A DNA stretch of 55,305 bases from Candidatus Magasanikiibacteriota bacterium (GTDB lineage Bacteria; Patescibacteriota; Patescibacteriia; Magasanikbacterales; UBA922): NCBI GenBank assembly GCA_016193335.1, contig JACPSK010000004.1, forward strand, positions 1 through 55,305, in the 5' to 3' direction. The notes under the pieces are model-generated. The model saw nothing but the letters and a program-made list of their open reading frames with translations, searched no databases and was not told where the DNA came from. Numbering within the stretch: the stretch's first letter is position 1; each line of letters starts with the position of its first letter. Position numbers and translations under genes: made by a program. Below, piece by piece: positions 1,408 to 41,212 of the stretch.

Positions 1408-1574
1408 ATTAAAATTAAAAATTAACATTTAACGATTGGCAATTAACTCGTTCCCGAAAGAAGTTAATGGTTGATGGTGAAATGTTAAGATTGTTACCAA
1501 AGAGCTGACTGATCATTACAATTCAATCGTGGAAAAATTGCAAAAGCAAAGAAGCACTTTTCAGTGCTTCTGTA

Positions 1575-4983
<3,409 letters not shown>

Positions 4984-5033
4984 GAAGCACTGAGCAGTGC
5001 TTTGCAATGCAATTAAAATTAAAAGAGACAGTA

Positions 5034-5142
5034 TCTTGGTGGTTGTTGCGGTGGGGGTACACCCGATCCCATCCCGAACTCGGCAGTTAAGCCCGCCAGC
5101 GCCGATGATAGTCGAAAGGCGAAAGTAGGTCGCCGCCAAGAT
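5034..5142 (+). rRNA. rrf: 5S ribosomal RNA
   Basis: tcttggtggt...cccgatcccatcccgaactcggcagttaagcccgccagcgccgatg...ccgccaaga. It is enclosed by an extended stem gagacagtatcttgg / ccaagatactgtctc followed by a T-run. Confidence 0.9.
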
Positions 5143-8918: not shown

Positions 8919-8947
8919 TTGACCAGGCTTTTGAACTGTGCTAGATT
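8919..8947 (+). promoter_or_regulatory. promoter candidate TTGACC-17-TAGATT
   Basis: ttgacc at 8919-8924 (a second ttgacc lies at 8899), a 17-nt spacer, then tagatt at 8942-8947, upstream of the GC-rich kinase gene. Confidence 0.35.
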
Positions 8948-8985
8948 TTATTTTGGGCAACAAGGAAGCATGGAGGCTAATACAG

Positions 8986-9993
8986 ATGATTCCGACTTTT
9001 GAGGGGGCAAGGATTTTCGTTGTCGGGGACTTGATTCTCGACAGCTTCACCTATTGCAGGAGGACAAGAACTTCGTCAGAAGACGGCCGTGCTTTTTGCG
9101 TGGACGTGGTCAAGCACGAATTGCAGATTGGCGGCGCGGGCAATGCCGCTCGCTGTGTGCGTGCTCTTGGCGGTTCGCCCGCCGTGTTCGCGGTGAGTGG
9201 CGCGGGCTACCATGCCCGGAAGCTGAATGACGCCCTCGTCGACGCGGGCGTGGATAGCGCTCTTGTGCGTACGGATGAACGTCCGACTACGTACAAGGAT
9301 CGCAACCGTGACGTTGACACCGGCGAACTTTTGCTGGTGGTTGAGCGACAGGATCGTTCGCCTATCCCGACTTGGGTTGGTGACGGTTTGCTCGGCCGTT
9401 TCGCGAGTGCTGCCGCCACGCGGCCACACGTGGTACTCGTCTCGGATTACGACCGAGGCGTGGTAACCGAACACGTGGCCAAGGGTGTCTCCCGCCTTTC
9501 CCAGAAGTGGGGGATTCCTCTCATCGTGGATGCCAGAGAGCGTCCTTTGGCTTGGTACAAACAAGCCTTTAAGTATCTGAGCCTGCTCACGCCCAACCGC
9601 CGAGAGCTGAGTAAGGTTGTTGGCCGAGAGCTCAATACTTCGGCTGAGATTGACACGGCGGCTCGAGAGGTCGCCGAGGCTCTGGACTGCGATGTGCTCG
9701 TTACCTTGTCCGAACAGGGTGCTCGGCTTTACACTCGAGACGGGCGAGTGCATCGCTTTGATGCCAAGAACGGCAGGCCTGTCTCGGTGTCCGGGGGCGG
9801 CGACGCGCTCGTCGCGGCCATCTCGGTTTGCCTCGCCAAGGGTATCCTCCTGGCCGAGGCCTGTGAGATCGCGCAGCACGCAGCCGCGGTATGCGTGGGT
9901 AAACCCGGCACAGACGTGTGTAGCTACGCAGAGCTGCTGGCTCACATCGAGAGCCACCCGCCGCGTTCCAAGAGGTCTGCTTCAGCCTGTTAA
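8986..9993 (+). CDS. PfkB-family carbohydrate kinase (HldE/RfaE kinase-domain-like), compositionally foreign
   Basis: ARIFVVGDLILDS, GGAGNAARCVRALGG, TPNRRELSKVVG and GGGDALVAA motifs. GGAGG lies 9 nt upstream of ATG 8986. The gene is much more GC-rich than its flanks. Confidence 0.75.
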   Translation: MIPTFEGARIFVVGDLILDSFTYCRRTRTSSEDGRAFCVDVVKHELQIGGAGNAARCVRALGGSPAVFAVSGAGYHARKLNDALVDAGVDSALVRTDERPTTYKDRNRDVDTGELLLVVERQDRSPIPTWVGDGLLGRFASAAATRPHVVLVSDYDRGVVTEHVAKGVSRLSQKWGIPLIVDARERPLAWYKQAFKYLSLLTPNRRELSKVVGRELNTSAEIDTAAREVAEALDCDVLVTLSEQGARLYTRDGRVHRFDAKNGRPVSVSGGGDALVAAISVCLAKGILLAEACEIAQHAAAVCVGKPGTDVCSYAELLAHIESHPPRSKRSASAC

Positions 9994-11891: not shown

Positions 11892-12645
11892 AACAAGCGT
11901 TCTCATTCTCGCGGCCGGCGAAGGTAAACGGATGGGGAAAGATCTGCCCAAAGTTATGCATGAGATCAAGGATAAACCCATGCTTGCCTATGTGTTTGAC
12001 GCGGTCAAAAATTCCGGGGTTTGTGATCTTCCCTTTTTGGTGGTTTCTGAAAAAAATAAGTCTCTGATTCAACATTATTTCGGCGAGGCTTTCGAATATG
12101 TTGTCCAAACCGAACAGCTCGGAACAGGGCACGCGGTGGCCGCGGCAGAAGAAAGACTCAAGAATCTGTCGAAACACATAATGGTTTTATATGGAGACAT
12201 GCCTTTTTTGCGTTCTGCTTCGATTCGCGCTTTGGCGAGACATCACTCGGATACAGACGCGGTTATCACTCTTATGACCACTCTGGCTCCGGATTTTGAA
12301 GATTGGAGGAGGTCTTTCGAAAGTTTCGGCAGGATAGTGAGGAACGACAAAGGCGCTATTGAGCGGATTGTGGAATATAAAGACGCGAATTTTGAAGAAT
12401 TACATATAAAAGAATTGAGTACTGGTTTTTTTTGTTTCCGAGGAGATTGGCTTTGGGAGCATCTCAAGAAACTCAACAATGATAACAGACAAAGTGAACA
12501 TTATTTGGTTGATGTCATTCCATGGGCCATACAAGAAGGTCTTGGCGTCCGGACGATTAATGTCGGTTTGAAAGAGGCGTACGGGATCAATTCAAAAGAG
12601 GATCTTGTCTTGGCTGAAGCCTTGGCCCCGGATTGGGGGGCTTAA
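11863..12645 (+). CDS. glmU: sugar-1-phosphate nucleotidylyltransferase resembling the N-terminal (uridyltransferase) domain of GlmU; lacks the LbH acetyltransferase domain
   Basis: LILAAGEGKRMGKDLPKVMH and GTGHAV motifs. It is only 260 aa, against ~450 aa for bifunctional GlmU. Confidence 0.7.
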   Translation: MKSQTRKNIETSVLILAAGEGKRMGKDLPKVMHEIKDKPMLAYVFDAVKNSGVCDLPFLVVSEKNKSLIQHYFGEAFEYVVQTEQLGTGHAVAAAEERLKNLSKHIMVLYGDMPFLRSASIRALARHHSDTDAVITLMTTLAPDFEDWRRSFESFGRIVRNDKGAIERIVEYKDANFEELHIKELSTGFFCFRGDWLWEHLKKLNNDNRQSEHYLVDVIPWAIQEGLGVRTINVGLKEAYGINSKEDLVLAEALAPDWGA

Positions 12646-12727
12646 TGGAATTTTTGCCAGTGAGCGCCCTATGAATTCATCCTTTATCAAGAATCAGTTT
12701 TAAAGATACCTAATACTTAAAAATTGT

Positions 12728-14575
12728 ATGTGTGGAATTGTTGGCTATATTGGCAATAAACAAGCTCTACCTATCCTTCTCAAGGGCCTGCGTCGTTTGG
12801 AATATCGCGGGTATGACAGTGCCGGGATTTCTTTGTTTAATGATGGTTCTCTCTCCTGTATCAGGGCTGTGGGGAAAATAGAAAATTTGGAAGAAAAATT
12901 AAAAACAAAAGTTTTGGAAGGGAGCATGGGTATTGCTCATACACGCTGGGCGACGCATGGAGGAGTGAGCGAGGAGAACGCGCATCCTCATATGGCCTGT
13001 GGGTCTGAGCTGGCGCTTGCCCATAATGGCATTATTGAAAATTATAGAGAACTTAAAGATGAGCTTTCCAAGACGCACGCGCACAAGTCTGAAACCGATT
13101 CCGAAGTTCTGGCTCATTTGATAGAAGAGCATTATAAAGTCCAAGATCCGGCCGAAGGAGGCGCGGCTTTGAGAAAAGCGGTTCAATCTGCTTTGGCTCA
13201 TGTGAGAGGAACCTATGGCATCGTGGTGATGCATAAAAATCATCCGGATACTTTGATAACAGCTCGTCTGGGCAGTCCCATTGTTATTGGCATCAATGAT
13301 GAAGAATATTATGTAGCCAGCGATACGACACCCATGCTTGCTTACACCAAGAAAGTCATTTTTCTTGATGACGGAGAAATCGCTGAGATATCGAGAGAGG
13401 GAATGCAGACCTACACGCTCAGAGATAAGAGCGTGGTGAAATGCGTGGAAGAAATAGATTGGGATGAAGACACGGCGCAAAAACAAGGTTATGAACATTT
13501 CATGCTTAAGGAGATTTTCGACCAGCCCAGAGTTTTTCAAGACGCGATTAGAGGCAGATATAATTTGGCCGAAGGCACTGCGTACTTGGGCGGTTTGAAC
13601 ATGAATGAAGAAGAAATGCGTTCGGTAAAGCGGATTATTCTTATAGCCTGCGGCACCGCGAGCTACGCGGCCATGGTCGGCAAATACGCTTTTGAACGGC
13701 TCGCCGGGATCCCTACTGAAGTGGATGTGGCGAGCGAATTTCGCTACCGCGATCCGATTATAGATTCTCAGACTTTGGTGTTTTGCATTTCACAATCCGG
13801 AGAAACGGCAGACACCCTCGCGGCTTTGAGAGAGGCAAAACGCAAAGGCGCTTTTGTTCGCGGGATCGTAAACGCGGTCGGCTCCACCATTGCCAGAGAG
13901 AGCGATGGTGGAACCTATATACACGCAGGCCCGGAGCTTGCGGTGGCCTCTACAAAAGCGTTTACCAACATGATCGCCATTCTTATACTCTACGCGCTTC
14001 AGTTTGGCCGCTTGAAACGCATTACTCTTGCTACCGGTCAGCGTCTTTTGCACGCGCTTAGGGAAATCCCGGATAAAATGGAAACGATTCTCGCTCAATC
14101 TAACTCGATAAAGAAAGTCGCGCTCAAATATAAAGACGCGCCCAATTTTTTCTTTTTGGGGAGAGGCATCAATTATCCGGTTGCTCTTGAAGGCTCTCTC
14201 AAAGTAAAAGAAACCACATACATACACAGCGAGGCATATCCGGGCGGCGAACTGAAACATGGTCCGCTCGCTCTCTTGTCCAAAGATTTTCCGGTTCTTG
14301 GCGTTCTTTCAAAAGATCAGCTCTACGATAAAATGCTGAGCAACATAGAAGAAGTGCGGGCACGCAAAGCTCCGGTGATTTTGATCGCCACCGAAGGAGA
14401 CGAGAATGCTCAGGGTTTGGCCGAAGATGTGCTGTATGTGCCTAGCACTATGGAATTGTTGGAACCTTTGCTCAACGCCATTCCTTTGCAGCTTTTCGCC
14501 TATCACATGGCTGTGGCGCTTGGCCGCGATGTCGACCGTCCCAGGAATTTGGCTAAAAGTGTAACCGTAGAGTGA
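12728..14575 (+). CDS. glmS: glutamine--fructose-6-phosphate aminotransferase
   Basis: MCGIVGYIG N-terminal nucleophile, two SIS domains and C-terminal ...NLAKSVTVE. Confidence 0.97.
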   Translation: MCGIVGYIGNKQALPILLKGLRRLEYRGYDSAGISLFNDGSLSCIRAVGKIENLEEKLKTKVLEGSMGIAHTRWATHGGVSEENAHPHMACGSELALAHNGIIENYRELKDELSKTHAHKSETDSEVLAHLIEEHYKVQDPAEGGAALRKAVQSALAHVRGTYGIVVMHKNHPDTLITARLGSPIVIGINDEEYYVASDTTPMLAYTKKVIFLDDGEIAEISREGMQTYTLRDKSVVKCVEEIDWDEDTAQKQGYEHFMLKEIFDQPRVFQDAIRGRYNLAEGTAYLGGLNMNEEEMRSVKRIILIACGTASYAAMVGKYAFERLAGIPTEVDVASEFRYRDPIIDSQTLVFCISQSGETADTLAALREAKRKGAFVRGIVNAVGSTIARESDGGTYIHAGPELAVASTKAFTNMIAILILYALQFGRLKRITLATGQRLLHALREIPDKMETILAQSNSIKKVALKYKDAPNFFFLGRGINYPVALEGSLKVKETTYIHSEAYPGGELKHGPLALLSKDFPVLGVLSKDQLYDKMLSNIEEVRARKAPVILIATEGDENAQGLAEDVLYVPSTMELLEPLLNAIPLQLFAYHMAVALGRDVDRPRNLAKSVTVE

Positions 14576-14672
14576 AAAATTTTGTACGCTTGTTTTTTTC
14601 GGAGAAAAATAAATGAGCTGAAGATTTAAACGGCCTAACATTTTGAAGGAGTTTTATCGGTAAAAGATTTTT

Positions 14673-15629
14673 ATGAAAAAAAAAGTAGTAGTGCTGGGTG
14701 GAGGAAATGGCAGCGCCAAATCCATTGGAGCTTGCAAGACTTTTATAGACCGAATTGAATTGTCTGCCGTGATTTCGGTGAGTGACTCTGGCGGCTCGAG
14801 CGGAAGGCTCCGTGATGAATATGATATCTTGCCTCCGGGAGATATATTGCGCGCGGTTATGGCCATGTCTCAATATCCTTATGATATTTTGAAGTCTATA
14901 TTTTATAAGTCTCGTTTTGAGAATGTGGGAGTTTTGGACGGACATAATGTGGGAAATTTATTTTTGGTTTTTGCCGCCCAATACGCCGGAGGAGACTTTG
15001 TGTCCGCCATACGCGCTCTGGAACAAAGTCTAAGCGCTCGAGGCCGCGTATACCCGGCAACGCTTGGCGACACGCATCTCGTGGCCGAACTTGCAAATGG
15101 GGAGATCATAAGAACCGAGGCGCTCATAGACCGGCCTGTGTATGACAGATCTCTGAAAATAAGAAAGCTTTGGCTGGAGCCGGAAGTTCGGATATATGAA
15201 GACGCCGAGCGGGTTATCCGTGAGGCTGATTATATCGTTATGGGCCCCGGCAGTTTGTATTGCAGTGTGGTCGCGGCCCTATTACCTTCTGGATTCAGGG
15301 AAGCCATCAAAAAATCTTCCGCGCGTCTCGTATACGTGGTAGGCAATGCCTTTGAATGTGATGGAGAAACGGGCCCGGGACATTTGAGCGGTTTTGTGGC
15401 AGGACTTCAACAGTATCTTCCGCGCCCGATTGATATGGTTGTATACAATAATCATATTATTTCTGATGAAGAGCAAGCAGGCTACACGCGAAAAAATTGG
15501 GCTTTGTTTGAAGCGGATTTTGAAAATGTCAAAGACTCTGAATTGATACAAGGAGATTATGAACGCTTGGGGAAAATTGGTTTGGACGACAAAAAGTTGG
15601 GGGCCATACTTGATCGATTACTTATATAA
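14673..15629 (+). CDS. yvcK: YvcK/GlmR (CofD-like, UPF0052) family protein
   Basis: VVVLGGGNGSAK, SVSDSGGSSGRLR, LPPGDILRA and GPGSLYCSV motifs. Confidence 0.8.
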   Translation: MKKKVVVLGGGNGSAKSIGACKTFIDRIELSAVISVSDSGGSSGRLRDEYDILPPGDILRAVMAMSQYPYDILKSIFYKSRFENVGVLDGHNVGNLFLVFAAQYAGGDFVSAIRALEQSLSARGRVYPATLGDTHLVAELANGEIIRTEALIDRPVYDRSLKIRKLWLEPEVRIYEDAERVIREADYIVMGPGSLYCSVVAALLPSGFREAIKKSSARLVYVVGNAFECDGETGPGHLSGFVAGLQQYLPRPIDMVVYNNHIISDEEQAGYTRKNWALFEADFENVKDSELIQGDYERLGKIGLDDKKLGAILDRLLI

Positions 15630-15641
15630 TATTTTGAATGT

Positions 15642-16001
15642 ATGGATATCACCAAAACGCCGAGAGATGATTGTTATAGTATCCAGTTTACGGTGAAAGA
15701 AGAGGGCAAAAAAGTGGCTTGGGGTTTCTTGGTGGTCATTAGCAATGATCGCCACGCTGAGTCCTACGGCCTCCTCGAAAATGTGTATGTGGAACCTGAA
15801 TTCAGAGGAAGAGGTATAGGAACTAAACTTTTGCAAGAGATTATAGCCGAGGCCAAACGAATTGGCTGTTATAAATTGCTCGGACAAAGCAGATATGGAA
15901 AAGAAAACGTGCATGATTTGTATCTGAGCTTGGGCTTTAAGGACCATGGAAAAAATTTTAGGATGGATCTGAAAGAATCACCGATTAGGCAACAGGATTA
16001 A
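15642..16001 (+). CDS. small GNAT-family N-acetyltransferase
   Basis: Acetyl-CoA binding motif VEPEFRGRGIGTKLLQEIIAEAKRIG; 119 aa. Confidence 0.75.
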   Translation: MDITKTPRDDCYSIQFTVKEEGKKVAWGFLVVISNDRHAESYGLLENVYVEPEFRGRGIGTKLLQEIIAEAKRIGCYKLLGQSRYGKENVHDLYLSLGFKDHGKNFRMDLKESPIRQQD

Positions 16002-16005
16002 TGTT

Positions 16006-16031
16006 CCGTAGATATTCAAAAATATATAAAG
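16006..16031 (+). repeat. copy of the CGTAGATA + A/T-rich intergenic motif
   Basis: ccgtagatattcaaaaatatataaag, upstream of the aconitase-IDH gene. Confidence 0.4.
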
Positions 16032-16085
16032 CCTCGAATTTTGAACAAGCCGGTATGTAATGGCGAGGGCATACATAAAATATAT

Positions 16086-19000
16086 ATGTCTCAATTCATA
16101 GATATCCAACGCATGAAGGAATTGTACGATCGGATGCGCGCTGAGCTTTCTTCTCTGCGCGGTTGTTTGGGGCGGCCTCTTCTTTTGTCTGAAAAGATTT
16201 TGTACACCCATTTTTATGATAAGGCAATCTCAGCCGATCTGATAGAACGCGGGAAAACCGAGCTTCGCTTGAAACCGGACCGCGTGGTGATGCAAGACGC
16301 CACCGCGCAAATGACTCTGCTCCAGTTTATGAGCGCCGGAATGGATAGCGTGCTTACTCCGTCTTCGCTACATTGCGATCATCTGATTCGCGCCCGCGAT
16401 GGAGCGGCAGAAGACATGGAACGGGCCATGCAAGAAAATAAAGAAGTATACGCCTTCTTATCTTCGGCATGCCAAAAATACGGTATTGATTTTTGGGAAC
16501 CAGGTTCAGGGATTATTCATCAGGTTAATTTGGAGCATTACGCGTATCCGGGCGCTTTGTTTGTAGGGACCGATTCCCATACCCCCAATGTGGGAGGCCT
16601 TGCCTTGTTGGCCGTTGGCGTTGGCGGTGCGGAAGCCGTGGATCCTATGACAGGCCAGGCCTGGACTCTTCGCGCGCCCAAACATGTGGGAGTGTTTTTG
16701 AAAGGGAATTGCTCCGGCTGGACTTCACCAAAAGATATTATATTGAAAGTTTGTTCTCTCATGACCGTAAAAGGCGGTACAGGGAAAATTTTGGAATACT
16801 TTGGAGAAGGAGCCCGATCCCTGAGCTGCACGGGCAAAGCTACCATTTGCAATATGGGCGCTGAACTGGGAGCCACGACTTCAATTTTTTCTTATGATGA
16901 ACAGATGTCAGAATATCTCAGAGCGACAGGAAGAGACGATGTGGCAGATCTGGCCGAGTCTTACGCGGATCTTTTGTCGGGTGATCCCGAAGTGTATGAA
17001 AATCCGGCCCTATATTTTGATGAAGTTATTGAAATAGATCTGAACGCTCTTGAACCTGGCTTGACCGGGCCAGACACCCCAGACGCGTATCATCCGGTTT
17101 CCAAGCTAAAGGGTTTAGCGGAACATTGTCAGATACCGAATACTATTGACGTCTGTCTGGTTGGAAGCTGTACCAATTCATCGTATGAAGATATAAGGAG
17201 AGTGGCCGAACTTTGTGATTTTGCCGACCGGAAAGGACTGAAATTGCGTTCCCGTTTTATGCTTACCCCTGGTTCGAGACAGATAGAAGAAACGATGAAA
17301 CGCGATGGTTATGTTGCCATCTTTGAAAAAGTAGGAGCGACGATTTTGAGCAATGCCTGCGGACCCTGCGTGGGTCAATGGGACAGAAATGACCTTCCGA
17401 AAGAACAAAAAAGCGTGGTAGTTTCCAGTTTTAATAGGAATTTTAAACGGCGCAATGACGGAAGAGCAGAAACCTACGCCTTTGTCGCGAGTCCGGAAAT
17501 CACCACCGCGCTGGCTTTTGCAGGCAGACTCGATTTTAATCCTTTGGAAGATTCTCTCGAAAATGAAGCAGGGGAAGCAATTCGTTTTGAGATAAAAACA
17601 ACTCAAAGTCTGCCCACGGTCGGTTTTGCCGCTACAGAGCGAGATGGCTTTGTGAAACCTTCGGAAGATCCTCGTTCATTGAAGGTAGAGGTAGGTCCAG
17701 ACAGCGACAGGATTCAGCTTCTCGAAGCTTTTAATGTGTGGAATCTTGAAAAAGATTTTACGGATTTGGTGGTTTTGGGTAAGGCGAAAGGAAAGTGCAC
17801 TACAGATCATATTTCTCCGGCCGGAGTGTGGTTTAAATATAGAGGACATCTCGATAATATCAGCAACAATTTATTTATTGGGGTCAATAACGCATTTTGT
17901 CCGGACGAAGGTAAGGGACATTATATAGAAAGCGGAAGAACTGATGAATTGAATAAAATTGCTCGGCGCTATAAGGAACAGAAAATTGGCTGGATTTTTG
18001 TGGCAGATGAAAATTATGGCGAAGGTTCAAGCCGAGAACACGCGGCCATGGAGCCTCGCTATCTTGGCTGCAGGGCCATCATAGCCAAAAGTTTTGCCCG
18101 CATTGCTGAGACTAATCTTAAAAAACAAGGATTACTTGCCCTCCAACTCAAAAATGCCAATGACTACGAAAGTATCCAGGAAAAAGACAAGATTTCCATT
18201 ATAGGTCTTTCCGAACTTGCTCCTGGCAGAGATATTATTGTGGAATTGAACCATTCAGACGGCAGCACAGATTTGATTTCCTGCGCGCATTCATTGAGTT
18301 TGGAGCAGATTGCCTGGTTTTACGCGGGTTCGGCGCTCAATGACGCAGGGCAGAAGCTTAAAAAAGCCTCTGTCGGTGCATCTGTTCCAAAAGAGACTTC
18401 CGCATTCGCGGAATTCAAAAAAATAAAAGTTCAGAATCCCATTGTGGAAATAGATGGCGATGAGATGGCGCGGGTTATCTGGCAGATGATAAAGGAGCGG
18501 CTTATTTTGCCTTATCTTGATATTGATATTAGATATTTTGATTTGCATATAAAAAATAGAGAGCGGACTGATGACCGCGTGACCGGTGAAGCGGCAGAAG
18601 CGATTAAGACATATAAGGTTGGCATCAAATGCGCGACTATTACTCCGAATAAGGCGCGCGTGGAAGAGTATACACTCAAGAAAGAATATAAATCGCCGAA
18701 TGGCACTATTCGCAATACGCTTGGCGGCACGGTATTTCGCGCGCCCATCGTTATTAAGAATATACCGAGACTGGTACCTGCTTGGCAACGCCCTATCGTG
18801 GTTGCCCGTCACGCGCACGCGGATCAGTACAAAGCTCTTGAGATGAATATCGATATTCCAGGCAAGCTGAGCATGAAATTCGCGGGAGCGGATACTTCGC
18901 TTCGCGAAGAGTCTCTGTATGAATACAAAACTCCGGGCATCGCGATTGGCATGTACAATACATTGGAATCTATAGAAGATTTCGCGCGCAGTTGCTTTCA

Positions 19001-19646
19001 ATATGGTCTTTTGATGAAGTACCCGGTGTATTTTAGCGCCAAAGAAACCATTTTAAAAATATATGATACCGCGTTCAGAGATATATTTCAGAACATTTTC
19101 GAAATTGAATTTAAGGAACGCTTTCTCGCGGCCGGCATATTCTATGATTACAAACTGATTGACGACATGGTGGCTCGGGTTCTCAAAATGGAAGGTGGTT
19201 TTGTCTGGGCCCTCAAGAACTATGACGGAGACGTTCAGTCTGACATGGTGGCCCAAGGTTTTGGTTCTTTGGGGCTCATGACTTCTGTGCTCATGTGTTC
19301 TGATGGCAAGACCATAGAAACCGAAGCGGCTCATGGCACGGTAACCCGCCATTATCAATTGCATAAAGAGGGGAAGCAGACGAGCACCAACCCTATGGCG
19401 AGTATTTTTGCGTGGACCCGCGGGCTCGCTCATAGGGGGAAACTGGATGAAAATCCGCGTTTGATTAGCTTTTCGGAAACGCTTGAGCGTGTTTGCGTGG
19501 AGACTGTTGAAAGCGGCTGTATGACTCAAGATCTGGCACGAGCTGTCCATGCCACAGAAGATCCGCCGGAAGGATCTTGGCTTAGCACTGAAGAATTTTT
19601 TTCAGAAATTGAAAAAAGGTTCGAGCAAGAAATTCAAAGCATATAA
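16086..19646 (+). CDS. fusion protein: mitochondrial-type aconitase (N, to ~18365) + type-II homodimeric NADP isocitrate dehydrogenase (C, from ~18417)
   Basis: The N part has [44 protein letters not shown] and [11 protein letters not shown], and ends [12 protein letters not shown] like the aconitase C-terminus. A linker [17 protein letters not shown] follows. The C part then has [51 protein letters not shown] and [16 protein letters not shown], as in IDH1/2-type IDH. It is a single uninterrupted frame. ATG 16086 is preferred over TTG 16041. Confidence 0.85.
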
Positions 19647-19708
19647 AGTTTTTTGATTTTTGGAGTGTTCATTTTTTCCGGGCGAACTGGCCGGGCTTCG
19701 ATTCTCTT

Positions 19709-19736
19709 AAAAATTATAAATTATAAATTAAAAATT
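19709..19736 (+). repeat. A/T-rich intergenic motif copy (aaaaattataaattataaattaaaaatt)
   Basis: Ends 7 nt before ATG 19743. Confidence 0.6.
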
Positions 19737-19742
19737 CACGCT

Positions 19743-20909
19743 ATGAATCTCTACGAATTCGAGGGGAAACATTTTTTTGAAAAGAGCGGTATTGCGGTTC
19801 CTAAAGGAATTATGGTATCGCGTGGCATGGACTATGCCACTGCGTATCAGAATTTGGGATTGACCGAAGTCGTGATAAAGGCGCAAGTTCTTTCCGGCAA
19901 AAGAGGCAAAAATAATGGCATACGTTTTTGCTCTTCGGCCGAGGGGGTGAATCGTGTCTGTACAGAACTCTTCGATTCGGAGCTGAATGGTCAATACATT
20001 TCGGCTCTGCGAATTGAAGAAAAATTGGACATAGCTGAGGAACATTACATGTCTATAAGCTATGATACCAATTCCAAACAGCCGGTTTTCATATACAGCA
20101 AAGAAGGAGGAATGGATATAGAAGACGTGGATGATGGGAACATCGACACATACATGCTGGATATCCGAGAGGATATGCTTTCGGTGCAAGCAAATAAAAA
20201 TGATTTCCCTTTAGAAATCGCCTTGAAATTATGGAATTGTTTTAAACAAAATGATGCTCGAATGGTGGAAATAAATCCTTTGGTAAAGACAAGCGGGGGT
20301 TTATGGATAGCGGCTGACGCCAAAATGGCTTTGGATGATGATGCTTTTTATCGTCATGAGGAATGGAGGAATCTCGAGCCTCGGAGCATGATGGGCAGGC
20401 CTGTCACGGATAGGGAAATTGAAGTTAAAAAAATTGATGAAGGGGAAAAATATTATCAGGGTACAGCGGGCAAATATATAGAAATGAACGGAGACATAGC
20501 GATATTGTTTTCCGGTGGCGGCGCGAGTATCGCGAACATGGATGCCTTGATAAAGGCTGGTTTGAAACCGGCAAATTATACTGAGTACTCCGGAAACCCG
20601 CCGAGAGAAAAAGTTTTTGAACTGACGAAAATTGTGCTCTCTAAACCCGGATTGCGGGGGTTGTGGATAGCCGGCGGTGTGGCCAATTTTACCAATATAA
20701 AAGAAACATTCAATGGGATTGTTGACGCCTTTGACGAACTCAAGCCGTCCTATCCGATTGTCGTGCGTCGGGCAGGGCCTTATGAAAGCGAAGGAATGGA
20801 ATTGATGCGAGACTGCGCGGCCAGGAACAATTTGAACATTCGTTTTTTTGGCAAAGAAACATCTATGAGCGAAACCGCGGGAGTCTTGGCGGGTATGTTG
20901 AATAATTGA
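19743..20909 (+). CDS. ATP-grasp SucC-like subunit; probable citryl-CoA synthetase large subunit (or succinyl-CoA synthetase beta)
   Basis: MNLYEFEGKHFFEKSGIAVPKG resembles the SucC/AclB N-terminus. The product is ~388 aa from ATG 19743. Gene context includes a citryl-CoA-lyase-like gene. Confidence 0.7.
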   Translation: MNLYEFEGKHFFEKSGIAVPKGIMVSRGMDYATAYQNLGLTEVVIKAQVLSGKRGKNNGIRFCSSAEGVNRVCTELFDSELNGQYISALRIEEKLDIAEEHYMSISYDTNSKQPVFIYSKEGGMDIEDVDDGNIDTYMLDIREDMLSVQANKNDFPLEIALKLWNCFKQNDARMVEINPLVKTSGGLWIAADAKMALDDDAFYRHEEWRNLEPRSMMGRPVTDREIEVKKIDEGEKYYQGTAGKYIEMNGDIAILFSGGGASIANMDALIKAGLKPANYTEYSGNPPREKVFELTKIVLSKPGLRGLWIAGGVANFTNIKETFNGIVDAFDELKPSYPIVVRRAGPYESEGMELMRDCAARNNLNIRFFGKETSMSETAGVLAGMLNN

Positions 20910-20993
20910 AAATGTAAATCGAAAACGAGGGTTTATATTTTTAAGATCCCCACCAGGGGATGATAGCAGAACTTGATTAACAAAAATTAAACT

Positions 20994-21890
20994 ATGGCTA
21001 TACTTATAGACAAAAACAGCAAAGTACTCATTCAGGGCATCACGGGCAAAGAAGGCCAAAAAGCCGCTCAGGCCATGATTGCGTATCACACTAATGTGGT
21101 GGGTGGGGTGCGTCCTGGCAAAGCCGGAGAAATGGTGGAAGGCAGACCGGTTTTCAATACAGTAGGCGAGGCTCTGGAAGCTGTCCCCGATATTTCGGTA
21201 AGTGCGATTTATGTGCCCCCTTTCGCCGCAAAAGCCGCTATGATGGAGGCTATAGACGCGGGTTTGCCACAAATCAATGTAATTGTAGAGCGTATCCCAA
21301 TCCAAGATACTGCCTACTGTTTGGCCGCGGCAAGAGAAAAAAATATCAGAATTATTGGCCCCAGTTCATTGGGTTATATCGCGCCCGGCCTTGGTAGGAT
21401 CGGCGTGGTGGGAGGGCCCGAGCAATTGGTGAATGAGATTTATCAGCCCGGCGGTATTGGGATTATATCTCGTTCCGGAGGCATGACCAATGAAGTCAGC
21501 TGGCAGATTCGAAAAGCCGGTTTGGGACAGAGCACGGCCGTGCACGCGGGCGGTGATTTGCTTATGGGTATGACCTATACTGATTTGCTCAAGGATTTTG
21601 AAAAGGATGAACAAACAAAAGCCGTGGTTATTTTCGGTGAACACGGAGGTAGTTATGAATTTGAGATCGTGGAATTGATTCAAGATAAGGGATATACCAA
21701 ACCCCTTGCCATATATATAGGAGGTAAATTCGCGCAGGTTCTGCCCGAGGGTATGAATATAGGCCATGCGGGGGCTATAGTAGAGCGGGGAAAGGGCGCG
21801 GTAGAGAAAGAAGCGGCTTTGAAGTCCGCCGGCGTCATGATCGCCGAACGCTATGAAGATTTGGTCGAATTGGTGAAGCCCCATGTTTAG
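20994..21890 (+). CDS. SucD-like CoA-binding subunit; probable citryl-CoA synthetase small subunit
   Basis: ILIDKNSKVLIQGITGKEG, IISRSGGMTNE and the phosphohistidine loop NIGHAGAIV. Confidence 0.75.
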   Translation: MAILIDKNSKVLIQGITGKEGQKAAQAMIAYHTNVVGGVRPGKAGEMVEGRPVFNTVGEALEAVPDISVSAIYVPPFAAKAAMMEAIDAGLPQINVIVERIPIQDTAYCLAAAREKNIRIIGPSSLGYIAPGLGRIGVVGGPEQLVNEIYQPGGIGIISRSGGMTNEVSWQIRKAGLGQSTAVHAGGDLLMGMTYTDLLKDFEKDEQTKAVVIFGEHGGSYEFEIVELIQDKGYTKPLAIYIGGKFAQVLPEGMNIGHAGAIVERGKGAVEKEAALKSAGVMIAERYEDLVELVKPHV

Positions 21891-21942
21891 CTGAAGTATT
21901 TTTTGTCCATTTGGAATATTCACTTTAACCATACATTAATAT

Positions 21943-22668
21943 ATGAGATTTAAAACATCCATCACGCGCATTGAAGAAGGCAAAGAAATTATACGCGGGC
22001 ATGAGCTTAGAGATTTGGTTCGAGAGAACAATTTTTCAGAGTCCATTTATTTGATTCTGAAAGGGAAACTTCCAAACAAACAAGAGGCCCGCATGTTTGA
22101 CGCCATTTTGACTTCGGTTATAGACCATGGCCCCGGAGTGGCATCGGCTATCGCGGCTCGAGTTTCAGCGAGCGCGAAAAATAGCATGCATACGTCTCTC
22201 GCCGCCGGTATTTTGAGTTTTGGGGACCGGCATGGCGTAGCTTCTGGGGCTGCCATGAAATTTTTTTATGATCATATTAAAGACTCGGATTTGGAAGCTA
22301 CTCTCAAGAGTATGAAAGAGAAAAAAGAATACGTTCCGGGTTTGGGTCATAAACTATTTCAAAAAGAAGATCCACGCTCGACGACACTCTTTGAAATCGC
22401 CAAAGAAACAGGAATCTTCGGGTCTTATTGTGTTTTTGCTCTAGCTGTATCTGAGATTTCAAACAGACTCTCTTCAAAAATGCTTCCGCTCAATGTTGAC
22501 GGAGCCATAGCGGCCATACTCTGCGACATGGGCTTTGATTATAGACTGGGAAAAGGTATATTTATGATAGGAAGAGTTCCTGGTCTTATCGCTCATATTT
22601 ATGAAGAAACGCTTAATGATGAAGGCATACGGCGCATTCCAGAGGAACAAATTGATTACACGGATTGA
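21943..22668 (+). CDS. short citrate-synthase-family protein; probable citryl-CoA lyase
   Basis: 241 aa. DHGPGVAS, SFGDRHGVASG and PGLGHKLFQKEDPRS correspond to the citrate-synthase catalytic core (GxGHxx...DPR). Confidence 0.7.
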   Translation: MRFKTSITRIEEGKEIIRGHELRDLVRENNFSESIYLILKGKLPNKQEARMFDAILTSVIDHGPGVASAIAARVSASAKNSMHTSLAAGILSFGDRHGVASGAAMKFFYDHIKDSDLEATLKSMKEKKEYVPGLGHKLFQKEDPRSTTLFEIAKETGIFGSYCVFALAVSEISNRLSSKMLPLNVDGAIAAILCDMGFDYRLGKGIFMIGRVPGLIAHIYEETLNDEGIRRIPEEQIDYTD

Positions 22669-22705
22669 TTGAATTTTATTATTTTTTTGAGATGGATTCC
22701 TGTGT

Positions 22706-23158
22706 ATGTTAAATGTTTTACTTGGGTTTTTCCTGGTGATTTTGACGAGCTACACCTCGGTATTTGCTTTATTTTTTTTAGTGAAATACTTGAGTGGCTG
22801 GAAGGAATTGGAGCAGATTTATCCTGCATCCCGAACAGATGAAACCGGCCCAAAGAGATATTTCGTGAGTTTAAGGTTGAATTGGCTTTCTTACAATAAT
22901 AGCGCCAAGCTCGAGGCATTGAACGGAGGATTGCGGATACAGCAAACTTTTTTTGGTTTTTTTGGAACACACAAACCGGCTTTTATCCCCTGGACTGAAA
23001 TTTTTTATGTCGAAAAAACAGAAAATCCCGGAGTTTTTGTTCGAAATGAATACTTGTTCCGCTTGAGCCGTTTAAATAGACTTTCTTTGCGAATTCCGTC
23101 TCGGGTCGGGTCTTGGATTCTCGAGCAAAAGAATTTTTATACATTGCCCAGATCTTGA
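22706..23158 (+). CDS. hypothetical membrane-anchored protein
   Basis: 150-aa ORF with an N-terminal hydrophobic helix LLGFFLVILTSYTSVFALFFLV. I recognise no family. Confidence 0.45.
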   Translation: MLNVLLGFFLVILTSYTSVFALFFLVKYLSGWKELEQIYPASRTDETGPKRYFVSLRLNWLSYNNSAKLEALNGGLRIQQTFFGFFGTHKPAFIPWTEIFYVEKTENPGVFVRNEYLFRLSRLNRLSLRIPSRVGSWILEQKNFYTLPRS

Positions 23159-23305
23159 TGTCCTACGATTAGGGCATGGAGGCTTAGATACCAGGCGACA
23201 ATAGACACTTACCACAGATACGCGGCCGAATACGCCAGACGGAGCGATCCGCTTCTTTATTACTTTATTACATTTTTTGAACGCATTTCTAAGGAGACTC
23301 TCAAT

Positions 23306-24580
23306 ATGATTAAACAGATTCTCGACCTGCACATCCATTCAAAATATTCCCGTGCTTGTTCGAAACATCTGGATTTTGAAACCATTGCCAAGACCTGCGA
23401 GATTCGAGGAATAAATATCGTGGCGACGGGAGATTTTACTCATCCGAAATGGTTTGCGTCAATCAAGGAAGAATTAAAAGAAGTGAACCCGGGTCTTTAC
23501 GCGCTTAAGAATGGATCCAGTAAAACGAGATTTATTATTGGCACTGAAGTGGCCAGTATAAAAAAACATAAGGGCAAAACGAGGCGCGTGCATCTGCTTT
23601 TGTTTGCTCCGACTTTGGAAACAGCCGAGCGTTTTAATGGGGAACTCATGCGGCGGGGTTTTAACGTGCGCGCGGACGGACGTCCCATTCTTGGTTTAAC
23701 TTCGAAAGAACTTTTGGAATTGATGCTGAACGTGGATAAACGCATGGTTATGATTCCTGCTCACGCGTGGACGCCCTGGTTTGGCATATTTGGATCCAAA
23801 GGCGGCTATGACTCTGTGGAAGAAGCTTTCGATGAATATTCCAGCCAGGTATTCGCGATTGAGACCGGACTCTCGAGCGACCCATTGATGAATTGGCGGA
23901 TTTCCGGCCTTGATCGGCTTACCCTTATTTCAAATTCCGACGCCCATAGCCCGCAGAAGCTCGGACGCGAGGCCAACGTGATGGCCTTTGATTCTGAATC
24001 CGAGATCAGTTATGACGGGATCATGCGTCTTATTCGCGAAGGCGACAAAAACAAATTTTTATATACTATTGAATTTTATCCTGAAGAGGGGAAGTATCAT
24101 CTGGATGGGCATAGCGCTTGCGGCTTTGTATGTCATCCGAGCGAAACGAAAAAATACGCCGGTCTTTGTCCAAAATGCAAAAAACCTTTGGTTATAGGTG
24201 TGATGAATCGAGTGTCCGAGCTTGCGGACAGAGATGAAATTCAGGCCAAGCGCTCGGCGCGTATTCCATACAAAAGTCTTGTTCCTTTGCCGGAAATCAT
24301 TGCCGACGTTTTGGGAAAAGGAGTACATACCAAATCTGTTCAAGCCGAATATACTAAACTTGTGAGAGGGCTCGGTTCTGAATTTTTTATTTTACTCGAG
24401 GCCCGGCTTGAAGATATAGCTCTGTCCAGCTCTTCTCGGATTGCCGACGCGGTTGATCGAGCGCGTCGCGGGGATATTTACATCAAGCCCGGCTTTGATG
24501 GAGTTTTTGGAGTAGTAAAAATTTTTGCTGATCATGAAAAAAAAGAAGAAGCGGCCCAAGGATCTTTTTTATTGGATTGA
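23306..24580 (+). CDS. PHP-domain protein of the endonuclease Q (EndoQ / TIGR00375) family
   Basis: DLHIHSKYS, RVHLLLFAP, ADGRP, PAHAWTPW, SNSDAHSPQKLGRE, GKYHLDGH, Zn-ribbon CPKCKK and C-terminal PGFDGVFG. At 424 aa it is the same length as archaeal EndoQ. AAGGAG lies 9 nt upstream of the start. Confidence 0.75.
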   Translation: MIKQILDLHIHSKYSRACSKHLDFETIAKTCEIRGINIVATGDFTHPKWFASIKEELKEVNPGLYALKNGSSKTRFIIGTEVASIKKHKGKTRRVHLLLFAPTLETAERFNGELMRRGFNVRADGRPILGLTSKELLELMLNVDKRMVMIPAHAWTPWFGIFGSKGGYDSVEEAFDEYSSQVFAIETGLSSDPLMNWRISGLDRLTLISNSDAHSPQKLGREANVMAFDSESEISYDGIMRLIREGDKNKFLYTIEFYPEEGKYHLDGHSACGFVCHPSETKKYAGLCPKCKKPLVIGVMNRVSELADRDEIQAKRSARIPYKSLVPLPEIIADVLGKGVHTKSVQAEYTKLVRGLGSEFFILLEARLEDIALSSSSRIADAVDRARRGDIYIKPGFDGVFGVVKIFADHEKKEEAAQGSFLLD

Positions 24581-24716
24581 TACCAGGCTTGCCGGCCGGG
24601 AATCTTGGATTTTAATTTTTTTGCTCGCTATCTTGGTGAATAGTTTTTTGCTCCCCGGTCCAGTAAAGGCTGTTCACCATTAGAGTGTTCTTGAACCCGG
24701 ATTTTTATAGAAACAC

Positions 24717-24740
24717 AAAACCCCCATTTAGGGGGTTTTT
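24717..24740. terminator. bidirectional intrinsic terminator
   Basis: aaaaccccc-attta-gggggtttt, flanked by A/T runs on both sides. Confidence 0.7.
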
Positions 24741-24754
24741 GCGTGAAATAGTGA

Positions 24755-24856
24755 TTATTTCTTCTTGCGTTTTGCAGCTTTTCGTTTGGCTGGTTTGCGT
24801 TTTGCAGCTTTTCGTTTGGCTGGTTTGCGTTTTGCAGCTTTTTTGCGTGTTGGCAT
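24755..24856 (-). CDS. 33-aa Lys/Ala/Arg-rich basic protein (MPTRKKAAKRKPAKRKAAKRKPAKRKAAKRKKK), histone-H1-tail-like composition
   Basis: Found by hand translation of the third minus-strand frame. A G-rich RBS (gggaaggggg) lies ~8 nt upstream of the ATG and the stop TAA lies 14 nt before the terminator at 24717-24740. The ORF is below the track's size cut-off. Confidence 0.55.
   Translation of the reverse strand: MPTRKKAAKRKPAKRKAAKRKPAKRKAAKRKKK
24767..24842. repeat. perfect 30-bp tandem repeat x2.5 (gcgttttgcagcttttcgtttggctggttt)
   Basis: Copies at 24767-24796 and 24797-24826, with a partial copy at 24827-24842. The repeat encodes the KPAKRKAAKR unit of the small ORF on the minus strand. 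Confidence 0.9.
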
Positions 24857-25221
24857 AATGTACACCCCCTTCCCTTGGGAAATTGTCGCACATGTTTTGG
24901 TATGACCATGGTACACACCAAATTACATACCATCGCGACAGAAGAAATATTTACGTGACAAGCATTGACGTAAAAATTTCCTGAAACATCTGTGTCTCGA
25001 CCTTTTGGAGTAGTATAACCTTTTTTTAATGTTAAAAACATAGTTTGCAATACTGAGCTGTGAATAACTTTTATTTTTTTAGAAATTAAACATCGTGTGT
25101 GTTTCGTTTGTTTGTTTATTTTTTTAAAAAGAATATTTGTTTCTATTTTTTTGAGTATGAATGTAATTCGAATGAATGAGCCCGCAGAAACCCGCGGGGA
25201 ATTTATCTGCGGGGGTTGGAA

Positions 25222-25480: not shown

Positions 25481-25556
25481 TGGTGCGCCTGGGTGGATTC
25501 GAACCACCGACTCCGACGTTATAAGCGTCGTACTCTAACCGCTGAGTTACAGGCGC
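25481..25556 (-). tRNA. tRNA-Ile with genomically encoded UAU anticodon
   Basis: Manual cloverleaf: gcgcctg-ta-actc-agcggtta-gagt-a-cgacg-ctTATaa-cgtcg-gagtc-ggtgg-ttcgaat-ccacc-caggcgc-a-cca. The body resembles bacterial tRNA-Ile. Confidence 0.8.
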
Positions 25557-39340: not shown

Positions 39341-39361
39341 TTTTTATGACTATGATTGAAT

Positions 39362-39389
39362 AAAAATTATAAATGGTAAATTATAAATT
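39362..39389 (+). repeat. A/T-rich intergenic motif copy
   Basis: aaaaattataaatggtaaattataaatt. It ends 9 nt before ATG 39399. Confidence 0.6.
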
Positions 39390-39398
39390 CCAATATCT

Positions 39399-40354: not shown

Positions 40355-40356
40355 AA

Positions 40357-41202: not shown

Positions 41203-41212
41203 TAAAGGAACC

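Follow-up and report, generated by a model that had tools for sequence, protein, structure and literature searches.

We analyzed a window of DNA that comprises one entire contig of 55,305 bp (JACPSK010000004.1; all positions are those of the whole stretch) from a Candidatus Magasanikiibacteriota bacterium, a groundwater member of the candidate phyla radiation (CPR) with a very small genome, and found that positions 16086-22668 hold four co-directional genes on the + strand, separated by gaps of 96, 84, and 52 nt, whose predicted products all belong to citrate metabolism. The first gene encodes aconitase and NADP-isocitrate dehydrogenase (IDH) as a single polypeptide (the Acn-IDH fusion), and the other three, ccsA, ccsB, and ccl, encode the putative large and small subunits of citryl-CoA synthetase (CCS) and a putative citryl-CoA lyase (CCL). 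The Acn-IDH fusion is genuine and is a lineage-specific later addition to the locus, whereas the CCS/CCL trio is its ancestral, conserved part. For the function of the four genes together, we tentatively favor a citrate hub, in which external citrate would be both cleaved by CCS/CCL and oxidized by the fusion; with substrates and flux direction read from the genomic context, we give this full account a probability of about 0.4. A first-pass annotation, made from the sequence of the window, had described the same four genes, and their coordinates and domain content were all borne out by the list of open reading frames (ORFs) and by Pfam and NCBIfam scans. Both motifs that it had singled out are present, namely GHAGA in the SucD-like protein (residue 257) and, in the 241-aa protein, GLGHKLFQKEDPR, and its description of the genome as reduced agrees with the nearest relatives, which are Candidatus Magasanikbacteria or Patescibacteria.

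Aconitase and isocitrate dehydrogenase are encoded in one reading frame

The ORF of the fusion opens at a TTG codon at 16041 (1201 aa), and we chose the ATG at 16086 as the likely start because the resulting N terminus (MSQFIDIQ...) agrees with that of stand-alone homologues. Three Pfam domains cover the protein, namely Aconitase (aa 36-480), Aconitase_C (aa 564-690), and Iso_dh (aa 781-1154). The aconitase half passes the TIGR01340 equivalog model with 963 bits (cutoff, 825), and the motifs that hold its Fe-S ligands are intact (GSCTNS at aa 360 and CGPC at aa 425). Over aa 1-760, it is 59% identical to a stand-alone 766-aa aconitase from another CPR contig (L005), and it is 56-59% identical to the stand-alone aconitases of contigs L092, L094, L176, and L177. 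The IDH half scores above the thresholds of both NF006156 (661 bits; threshold, 335) and TIGR00127 (608 bits; threshold, 397), with a match that extends over profile positions 1-409, and its nearest relatives, at 67-70% identity, are found in Candidatus Moranbacteria and Candidatus Peregrinibacteria, as the idh genes of L005, L177, and L094, and on other contigs. The GC content and codon usage of the fusion resemble those of the neighboring genes, which argues that a transfer of the fusion, if there was any, is not recent.

At the junction between the two halves, the aconitase sequence has no stop codon, there is no ATG, GTG, or TTG near the IDH N terminus, and the other two frames are closed. 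In the unfused contigs L005 and L177, the aconitase ends with LRKRLKSS and a stop codon, followed by a spacer of 25-26 nt and the IDH start. The fusion thus probably arose from an acn-idh gene pair like those of other CPR bacteria, by loss of the stop, the spacer, and the start that lay between the two genes.

We considered whether the fusion might instead be an assembly or sequencing artifact, or a pseudogene-like read-through of two genes, given that it is seen in a single population only, that its junction contains A-rich runs, and that the acn and idh genes of relatives are separate and lie 25-176 nt apart. A CcsA protein identical to that of the window is known on eight contigs, and we retrieved five of these (L007-L011), which belong to NCBI assembly GCA_964404105.1 and to the Logan assemblies of SRR12113420, SRR12113428, SRR12113383, and SRR4343435. 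The fused frame is present in each of them; it is complete (1201 aa) in four and cut by the contig end in L011. Over the shared region, the module is 100% identical in L007, L008, L009, and L011 and differs by one single-nucleotide polymorphism, away from the junction, in L010; the 100-nt stretch that spans the junction is the same in all five. A one-off assembly error is excluded by the recurrence of this junction in five further assemblies, which were produced with different pipelines from no fewer than four sequencing runs. Further, IDH lacks a start of its own and the alternative frames are closed, so that correction of a single indel would not yield two functional genes, and both halves are of full length, with intact motifs, family scores well above the cutoffs, and codon usage in agreement with the neighboring genes. 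An artifact or a read-through is therefore very improbable, and the fusion named in the first-pass annotation is real. The closest relative of the window CcsA, at 87% identity, comes from a 1955-bp contig (L175) with only 60 nt upstream and is uninformative about the fusion in this sister species.

The fusion is apparently unique so far and the first natural one of its kind. The best 120 matches in a search of 5.8 billion protein clusters included no other Acn-IDH fusion, the rest being stand-alone aconitases at ≤60% identity, and, when 1.84 billion cluster representatives were scanned exhaustively with HMMER, the best 150 matches included no protein that matched both halves, although clustering at 50% identity can hide a fusion beneath an unfused representative, as evidently befell the window's own protein. 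A scan of metagenome contigs with an alignment of CPR IDHs gave, among the matches listed, IDHs at ≤64% identity and no further fusion or citrate cluster, and we found no report of a natural aconitase-IDH fusion in the searchable literature. We note two double proteins of other composition: a 1099-aa database protein (P0241) that joins an aconitase, 50% identical to the aconitase half of the window, to a lactate/malate dehydrogenase (Ldh_1_N and Ldh_1_C), and a protein (P0304) that combines Iso_dh with a monomeric IDH. P0241 and Schizosaccharomyces pombe Aco2, a fusion of aconitase with a mitochondrial ribosomal protein (bioRxiv 10.1101/2019.12.16.879015), resemble the window protein in being mitochondrial-type aconitases with an extra C-terminal domain but differ from it in the partner.

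The downstream trio very probably encodes citryl-CoA synthetase and citryl-CoA lyase

The ccsA ORF opens at 19653, and its canonical start is the ATG at 19743 (MNLYEFEGK). In addition to ATP-grasp_2, CcsA contains the citrate-binding domain PF16114 (Citrate_bind, 108 bits; cutoff, 26.8) and lacks PF00549 (Ligase_CoA), and its scores lie below the SucC cutoffs of TIGR01016 (227.9 bits; cutoff, 375.6) and NF001913 (224.7 bits; cutoff, 370). When compared with solved structures, CcsA matched the CCS large subunit of Hydrogenobacter thermophilus (6hxq_B) at 2.4e-60, the β subunit of Chlorobium ATP-citrate lyase (ACL) at 4.7e-43, and the β subunits of succinyl-CoA synthetase (SCS) at 8e-40 and worse. 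The C-terminal domain on its own gave the same order against the PDB, with 119.8 bits for CCS, 99.3 for AclB, 74.4 for archaeal ACL, 67.5 for human ACLY, and at most 50.9 for SCS-β. At the positions aligned with Gly-309, Asn-346–Phe-347–Thr-348, and Arg-379 of human ACLY, which reportedly contact citrate (Sun et al. 2010), CcsA reads YSGNP, ANFT, and VRRAGP. The corresponding residues are YSGDP, ANFT, and VRRGGP in Chlorobium AclB and IGGNP, ANNT, and VRRNGP in Hydrogenobacter CcsA, and they are GGGA, GGI(T/V)R, and VR(V/L)xG in three SCS-β proteins. A phylogenetic placement of the pair against bona fide SCS had been proposed in the first-pass annotation. In a small neighbor-joining tree (16 CPR sequences, H. 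thermophilus CcsA, two AclB, and three SCS-β; 200 bootstraps), the large subunit groups with CcsA and AclB: SCS-β was split from all CCS, ACL, and CPR large subunits in 100% of the bootstraps, and the clade of CPR large subunits also had 100% support.

CcsB has the phosphohistidine loop GHAGA, which is invariant in eight CPR sequences, and lies below the SucD cutoff of NF004230 (279 bits; cutoff, 336). As a single sequence, it scored 235 and 227 bits against archaeal SCS-α and 209 bits against the CcsB of CCS; a profile built from eight CPR small subunits scored 289 and 275 bits versus 249 bits. We assign the small subunit as CcsB because of its partner genes and the conserved synteny described below. 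In CCL, Pfam PF00285 (Citrate_synt) is matched at profile positions 164-354 only, and the score against the citryl-CoA lyase model NF004869, 272.7 bits, lies above the cutoff of 212. Its best match in the PDB is H. thermophilus CCL (6hxp_A), with 1e-63 over residues 3-240, compared with 1e-24 at best for citrate synthases. His-62 (IDHGPG), His-136 (GLGHKLF), and Asp-186 (LNVDGA), which are presumably the catalytic His/His/Asp of the citrate synthase fold, do not vary among four CCLs from CPR bacteria and fall within the conserved motifs of CCL and citrate synthase. The stop of ccsB is at 21890, and ccl begins only after the 52-nt gap; because the SucD-like and lyase parts are thus separate genes, the trio has the split form of CCS plus CCL and not that of AclAB. 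The first-pass annotation had compared the trio with the split ATP-citrate lyase of Hydrogenobacter, a view that the domain scores, PDB matches, motifs, and tree uphold.

The SucCD-like pair could alternatively be an ordinary SCS or another acyl-CoA ligase, e.g. malate-CoA ligase, with the 241-aa protein being a truncated or degenerate citrate synthase. The small subunit does score archaeal SCS-α slightly above the CCS small subunit, and the homologues are called "succinyl-CoA synthetase beta subunit" in several databases. However, both subunits fall below the NCBIfam cutoffs for SucC, SucD, and MtkA; the large subunit has the citrate-binding domain of ACL in place of Ligase_CoA, keeps the citrate-contact motifs, and is separated from SCS-β with full bootstrap support; the 241-aa protein passes the CCL model, aligns end to end with the solved CCL, and keeps the His/His/Asp; and the three genes stay together, in unchanged order, in dozens of genomes. 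We judge this alternative to be highly unlikely, and, as far as comparison of sequences allows, the assignments of all four enzymes (the fusion, CcsA, CcsB, and CCL) are very likely correct.

The CCS/CCL trio is conserved in Magasanikbacteria-like species without the fusion

More than 100 proteins in the databases are related to CcsA at 66-72% identity, and those that are named belong to Candidatus Magasanikbacteria or Patescibacteria. A scan with a CCL alignment, in which each species of the GTDB was represented by one genome, gave at least 593 relatives of CCL. The best 30 of these loci, at 45-63% identity, are Magasanikbacteria-like; by the titles of their records, eleven are Magasanikbacteria and one each is Uhrbacteria, Paceibacter, and Patescibacteria, and many have placeholder titles that are evidently wrong. 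In particular, "uncultured Gammaproteobacteria bacterium" is the title of many records that show synteny of the Magasanikbacteria type and a CCL identity of 50-63% (L012, L015, L016, L019, L021-L023, L025, and others), and the titles of this third-party annotation (TPA) series appear unreliable. Remoter copies of CCL are found in other Patescibacteria, in DPANN archaea (Aenigmatarchaeota and Nanoarchaeia), and in Leptospirillia/Nitrospirota, Zixibacteria, Ignavibacteria, and others. We also note that three loci from Leptospirillia/Nitrospirota of the type with a reductive tricarboxylic acid (rTCA) cycle (L042, L043, and L045) have ccl followed immediately by an aconitase gene, 54-55% identical to the aconitase half of the window, with ccsA and ccsB a few kb upstream of ccl.

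The order ccsA, ccsB, ccl is the same in all 30 close loci. GlmS is encoded upstream of ccsA in 21 of them, nearly always followed by a YvcK-like and a GNAT gene in the same order, an arrangement also present in L001 and L004, and a gene of the PHP/MJ0043_C family lies downstream of ccl in 17. This glmS-yvcK-GNAT-trio-PHP order is exactly that of positions 12728-24580 of the window (Table 1), where glmS, the YvcK-like gene, and the GNAT gene together occupy 12728-16001 directly upstream of the fusion gene. By contrast with the window, no aconitase or IDH gene lies within 10 kb of the trio in any of the 30 loci, and the slot of the fusion is filled by unrelated small genes. Among database proteins of Magasanikbacteria, we saw no close orthologue of the aconitase half, whose relatives all have ≤60% identity, and none of the approximately eight IDH relatives at 67-70% identity is named Magasanikbacteria. 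From these database matches, most Magasanikbacteria probably lack aconitase and IDH altogether. Because about 30 Magasanikbacteria-like species carry the trio without an adjacent aconitase or IDH, the fusion is the lineage-specific addition, and CCS/CCL must serve a function that does not depend on it.

Many of the relatives (L015, L016, L022-L025, L032, and others) have one to six small or medium ORFs, mostly without a Pfam match, that interrupt the trio and leave the order of the enzyme genes intact; some of these inserted ORFs recur (clusters c3, c4, c6, and c7). When ten large variable ORFs in the vicinity of the trio in relatives were compared with Pfam, no recurrent metabolic partner emerged: the matches were FG-GAP, Peripla_BP_6, DAO, and sugar-modifying enzymes, and several of the ORFs had no match.

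Within the window, we detected no further TCA cycle gene in a Pfam scan of 30 other ORFs of at least 150 aa or in NCBIfam scans, as the first-pass annotation had also stated; neither citrate synthase nor 2-oxoglutarate:ferredoxin oxidoreductase, fumarate reductase, pyruvate:ferredoxin oxidoreductase, or any other rTCA gene lies within its 55 kb. The window does encode a GlpX fructose-1,6-bisphosphatase and a class I aldolase further upstream, as well as an oligopeptide-binding protein and glutamate-producing enzymes. A scan of positions 12500-25000 for promoters and terminators found such sites no more numerous than in shuffled sequence and is uninformative about the operon structure.

Table 1. 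Coordinates of the citrate genes, the parts of the fusion, and other genes of the window
Feature	Position	Strand	Description
Acn/NADP-IDH fusion gene	16086..19646	+	1186 aa; Pfam Aconitase, Aconitase_C, Iso_dh
Aconitase half	16086..18365	+	aa 1-760; mitochondrial-type AcnA
Linker/junction	18366..18413	+	about 15-16 residues; replaces the stop, 25-26-nt spacer, and ATG of unfused relatives
NADP-IDH half	18414..19646	+	aa 777-1186; homodimeric "eukaryote-type"
ccsA, putative CCS large (SucC-like) subunit	19743..20909	+	388 aa; ATP-grasp_2 and Citrate_bind
ccsB, putative CCS small (SucD-like) subunit	20994..21890	+	298 aa; CoA_binding and Ligase_CoA/Succ_CoA_lig
ccl, putative citryl-CoA lyase	21943..22668	+	241 aa; citrate-synthase C-terminal core only
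glmS	12728-14575	+	upstream context, conserved in relatives
YvcK/GlmR-like UDP-GlcNAc-binding protein	14673-15629	+	TIGR01826, 212 bits (cutoff, 196); CofD Pfam match
GNAT acetyltransferase	15642-16001	+	119 aa; GNAT Pfam match
ORF with hydrophobic N terminus	22706-23158	+	150 aa; without Pfam match
PHP/MJ0043_C-family protein	23306-24580	+	424 aa; downstream context, conserved in relatives
Shikimate block	38051-48728		EPSP synthase, shikimate kinase, shikimate dehydrogenase, DAHP synthase, DHQ synthase, chorismate synthase, prephenate dehydratase, prephenate dehydrogenase, aspartate aminotransferase (AspAT)-like aminotransferase

Other CPR bacteria cluster citrate cleavage with aconitase and NADP-IDH

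Clusters that combine the genes for a citrate-cleaving enzyme, aconitase, and NADP-IDH recur in CPR bacteria. The gene order aclB-aclA-acn-idh is found in three CPR contigs, L005, L092 (Candidatus Moranbacteria, GCA_014729795.1), and L177 (a groundwater metagenome), whose acn and idh products are 56-59% and 67-70% identical to the respective halves of the window fusion. Their AclA proteins are fused and have 616-619 aa, which makes them true fused-α ATP-citrate lyases, and the AclB and AclA of these contigs share only 28-34% identity with CcsA, CcsB, and CCL of the window. No citrate synthase gene is present in these clusters. The PHP/MJ0043_C neighbor is also found downstream of the L005 cluster, with 46% identity. 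The window is a variant of this arrangement, in which the resident CCS/CCL of Magasanikbacteria is the cleaving enzyme and the acn-idh pair has become one gene.

In L005, idh is directly followed by genes for a CBS protein and a permease of the CitMHS family (PF03600, 308 bits), and, in a Magasanikiibacteriota metagenome-assembled genome (MAG; L017), this pair of genes is found immediately after ccl, with 58-59% identity. In L092, three genes, pntAA, pntAB, and pntB (L092:1202-4095), which together encode a proton-translocating NAD(P) transhydrogenase, lie directly upstream of aclB. Further, in L094, a small 23S-rRNA-IVP gene separates acn from idh. This gene, of the 23S_rRNA_IVP/bAvd four-helix-bundle family, stands right after the aconitase gene in two unrelated contigs (L094:9474-9947 and L176:9454-9843); bAvd genes are usually part of diversity-generating retroelements.

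A possible citrate hub and the direction of flux

The chemistry of CCS, CCL, aconitase, and NADP-IDH is established family knowledge, and what has to be decided is how the four activities would be combined. In the hub that we favor, the common substrate would be citrate from the surroundings or from a host. In one branch, CcsAB would convert citrate, ATP, and CoA to citryl-CoA, ADP, and Pi by way of the phosphohistidine on the small subunit, and CCL would split citryl-CoA into acetyl-CoA and oxaloacetate; this branch would cost ATP and would supply acetyl-CoA for acetylations, e.g. in amino-sugar synthesis, and oxaloacetate for aspartate synthesis or gluconeogenesis. In the other branch, the fusion would take citrate through isocitrate, which may be channeled within the polypeptide, to 2-oxoglutarate, CO2, and NADPH, with 2-oxoglutarate serving as the amino-group acceptor that yields glutamate. 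The window holds candidate consumers of these products, namely GlmS, YvcK, and GNAT upstream and the AspAT-like aminotransferase and the NADPH-using shikimate pathway downstream. In Bacillus subtilis, YvcK is needed for growth on Krebs cycle intermediates and controls GlmS, and a route from gluconeogenic carbon to amino sugars would fit this, although the link is speculative.

Three observations favor citrate as a substrate that is supplied from outside and consumed. First, because CCS/CCL without aconitase and IDH leaves only the interconversion of citrate with acetyl-CoA and oxaloacetate, citrate would have to be exchanged with the outside in the relatives that have the trio only. Second, the CitMHS-family permease adjoins the citrate genes in L005 and L017. 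Third, every characterized CCS/CCL works in the cleavage direction. We think it likely that CCS/CCL runs in this direction here, and, on balance, the context leans toward the fusion running in the oxidative direction.

Several points weigh against this reading. First, the direction of flux is read from genomic context, and a conserved four-gene acl-acn-idh operon of consecutive reactions would fit a linear pathway at least equally well. Second, the permease is present in only 2 of about 35 related loci and scores below every NCBIfam cutoff (MamN, ArsB, and DASS), its substrate being predicted only, and the Pfam scans of the window ORFs revealed no citrate transporter. Third, the pntAB genes beside the Moranbacteria cluster could mean that IDH consumes NADPH, i.e. 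that it works reductively. Fourth, with respect to the enzymes themselves, the closest neighbor of the clade of CPR large subunits was CcsA in 53% of the replicates and AclB in the other 47%, so that its placement is split between them, and the small subunit is by sequence not distinguishable from SCS-α, the α subunits being too conserved.

The first-pass annotation had treated the four genes as a self-contained pathway that could run oxidatively and conserve ATP. In such a linear pathway, CCL would condense acetyl-CoA and oxaloacetate, CCS in reverse would yield ATP and citrate, and the fusion would drain citrate irreversibly to 2-oxoglutarate, CO2, and NADPH for glutamate synthesis. The four genes do encode consecutive reactions, three other CPR contigs bring these four functions together as well, and neither in the window nor in those clusters did we see a citrate synthase. 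The overall ATP-citrate lyase reaction is near equilibrium, and the fusion would help to hold citrate low and so pull an unfavorable equilibrium forward; further, the window GlmS and aminotransferase require a pool of glutamine, glutamate, and 2-oxoglutarate. There is also a precedent in Desulfobacter postgatei, which runs ATP-citrate lyase in the synthetic, ATP-forming direction (Moller et al. 1987, as cited in PMC12137691). However, this cannot be the function of CCS/CCL in the approximately 30 relatives without a nearby aconitase or IDH, and apparently without close orthologues of either; acetyl-CoA gives ATP more simply by acetate formation, with oxaloacetate spared; and the CitMHS-family permease beside citrate genes suggests an exchange of citrate with the outside. 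Neither the self-contained pathway nor the oxidative, ATP-conserving run is supported in the form in which it was put, and we consider the latter unlikely. If true, it would provide an extra site of substrate-level phosphorylation for an ultra-small fermentative symbiont on the way to glutamate, an energy-conserving oxidative half-cycle of a kind not described in CPR bacteria.

The same reactions could also be run as a linear reductive half-cycle, a direction that the first-pass annotation had likewise allowed, in which IDH would carboxylate 2-oxoglutarate with NADPH, aconitase would form citrate, and CCS/CCL would yield acetyl-CoA and oxaloacetate, similar to the reductive glutamine metabolism of hypoxic mammalian cells or to the last steps of the rTCA cycle. 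NADP-IDH of the homodimeric type is reversible in vivo, and PntAB transhydrogenase, which is encoded directly upstream of aclBA-acn-idh in the Moranbacteria contig, usually supplies NADPH. Further, the characterized CCS/CCL systems all cleave, and do so in rTCA organisms (Aoshima et al. 2004, as summarized in bioRxiv 10.1101/2022.10.25.513756), and ccl directly precedes acn in the three Leptospirillia/Nitrospirota loci. The 2-oxoglutarate would come from imported glutamate or glutamine or from the GlmS and transaminase reactions, which is compatible with the oligopeptide-binding protein and glutamate-producing enzymes of the window. Against this reductive route, it leaves the relatives that have CCS/CCL without aconitase and IDH unexplained, which would still need external citrate; the window encodes no 2-oxoglutarate:ferredoxin oxidoreductase or other rTCA gene; and the route would consume NADPH as well as ATP in a presumably energy-limited organism. 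We regard it as improbable and retain the citrate hub as the preferred reading.

Other features of the contig

The window contains several further features. A tyrosine-recombinase/integrase gene (304-1146) lies upstream of a 23S rRNA gene (1570-5141) that spans 3417 nt compared with 2925 nt of the model, i.e. with approximately 490 nt of insertions, and no ORF within it that reads in the rRNA sense reaches 90 aa; a 5S rRNA gene follows directly, and no 16S rRNA gene was detected anywhere in the 55-kb contig. The gene for a PfkB/RfaE-domain-I-like sugar kinase (8938-9993) has a GC content of 0.60 and a third-position GC content (GC3) of 0.65, with its neighbors at approximately 0.45, and may have been acquired horizontally in recent times. 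At about 24775-24822, between the PHP gene and tRNA genes, a hairpin-forming 18-mer, CAGCTTTTCGTTTGGCTG, is present in two identical copies 30 nt apart; read on the opposite strand, this short tandem repeat gives a repeated KLQNANQPNE peptide in the ORF at 24628-25050. On the − strand, a gene for tRNA-Ile with the anticodon TAT (25481-25556, by ARAGORN) adjoins that for tRNA-Arg(CCG); a genome-encoded tRNA-Ile with a UAU anticodon is uncommon in bacteria. The pathway from shikimate to Phe and Tyr is complete and contiguous (Table 1), which is an unusually rich biosynthetic block for a CPR genome, and is followed by a gene for a class I tRNA synthetase of the Trp/Tyr type. Finally, the gene for a large serine recombinase (49877-51493, − strand) overlaps the 3′ end of tRNA-Asn (49817-49891) and is followed by genes for an AAA_14/DUF4143 ATPase and a RadC-like protein, and the region 49817-54755 looks like a mobile element integrated at tRNA-Asn.

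Discussion

The definition of CCS and CCL goes back to work on Hydrogenobacter (Aoshima et al. 2004), and the structures of both have been solved (PDB 6HXQ and 6HXP). The window trio resembles H. thermophilus CcsAB and Ccl in consisting of three separate polypeptides, a SucC-like protein with a citrate-binding domain, a SucD-like protein with a phosphohistidine loop, and a core-only lyase of approximately 250 aa. It differs from them in that the window CcsA is only ~38% identical and has the citrate loop ANFT, as in ATP-citrate lyases, whereas that of Hydrogenobacter is ANNT, and in that the trio is contiguous and stands beside a fused Acn-IDH gene. The hosts also differ, the one being a non-autotrophic-looking CPR bacterium with a reduced genome and the other an rTCA autotroph. 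With AclBA (Chlorobium limicola, PDB 6HXJ) and the CPR aclB-aclA-acn-idh clusters (L005, L092, and L177), the window shares the overall chemistry and, with the latter, the clustering of cleavage, aconitase, and NADP-IDH. However, the SucD-like and lyase parts of ACL form one polypeptide of ~610-620 aa and are separate genes in the window, and acn-idh comes first and is fused in the window but comes last and is separate in the CPR clusters. SCS (SucCD) is homologous in fold and mechanism, with an ATP-grasp β subunit and a phosphohistidine α subunit; unlike it, the window large subunit has citrate-binding motifs and no Ligase_CoA, and the pair is partnered by a lyase gene.

In the eukaryotic cytosol, imported citrate is split by an ATP-dependent lyase and, in parallel, converted to 2-oxoglutarate and NADPH by an aconitase and an NADP-IDH that are of one sequence type with those of the window. 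The proposed hub is analogous to this node of ACLY, ACO1, and IDH1, by analogy and not by descent, and the match to TIGR00127 ("nadp_idh_euk") is consistent with the likeness; the window enzymes are bacterial, however, with the lyase split over three genes, Acn and IDH fused, and the import of citrate predicted. As for the ATP-conserving use of a citrate cleavage enzyme, its precedent in Desulfobacter postgatei, cited in PMC12137691, concerns an organism with a complete oxidative cycle that respires sulfate, and nothing comparable is visible in the window.

A preprint (bioRxiv 10.1101/2022.10.25.513756) mentions in passing that homologues of CCS and CCL, mis-annotated as SCS and citrate synthase, occur in CPR and DPANN, and aclAB is enriched in MAGs of Saccharimonadia (PMC12577380). 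The searchable literature contained nothing specific on TCA, citrate, or ACL genes in Magasanikbacteria. As far as our literature searches go, the fusion, the glmS-yvcK-GNAT-ccsA-ccsB-ccl synteny, the clusters of citrate cleavage with acn-idh in CPR bacteria, and the association of these clusters with a CitMHS-family permease are new; they are new variants and contexts of known enzymes and not a new kind of system.

In metagenome surveys, ccsAB/ccl and aclAB are routinely used as markers of rTCA autotrophy. The trio is conserved in dozens of Magasanikbacteria-like species with reduced genomes, with no TCA genes in the stretches read, and a non-autotrophic role in citrate scavenging or acetyl-CoA supply, if true, would change how these markers are read. 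The large subunit of CPR bacteria lies between CcsA and AclB, and both split and fused lyases are present in CPR bacteria, which bears on the evolution of ATP-citrate lyase and citrate synthase. The fusion joins two consecutive enzymes and is thus a natural test case for the channeling of isocitrate. To our knowledge, CPR bacteria are usually described as lacking TCA enzymes, and the locus would give an organism without a visible Krebs cycle a compact route from citrate to acetyl-CoA, oxaloacetate, 2-oxoglutarate, and NADPH. Overall, the recurrence of a cluster of citrate cleavage, aconitase, and NADP-IDH, in three versions with ACL and one with CCS/CCL, suggests a defined citrate node, which could be part of what CPR episymbionts take from their hosts.

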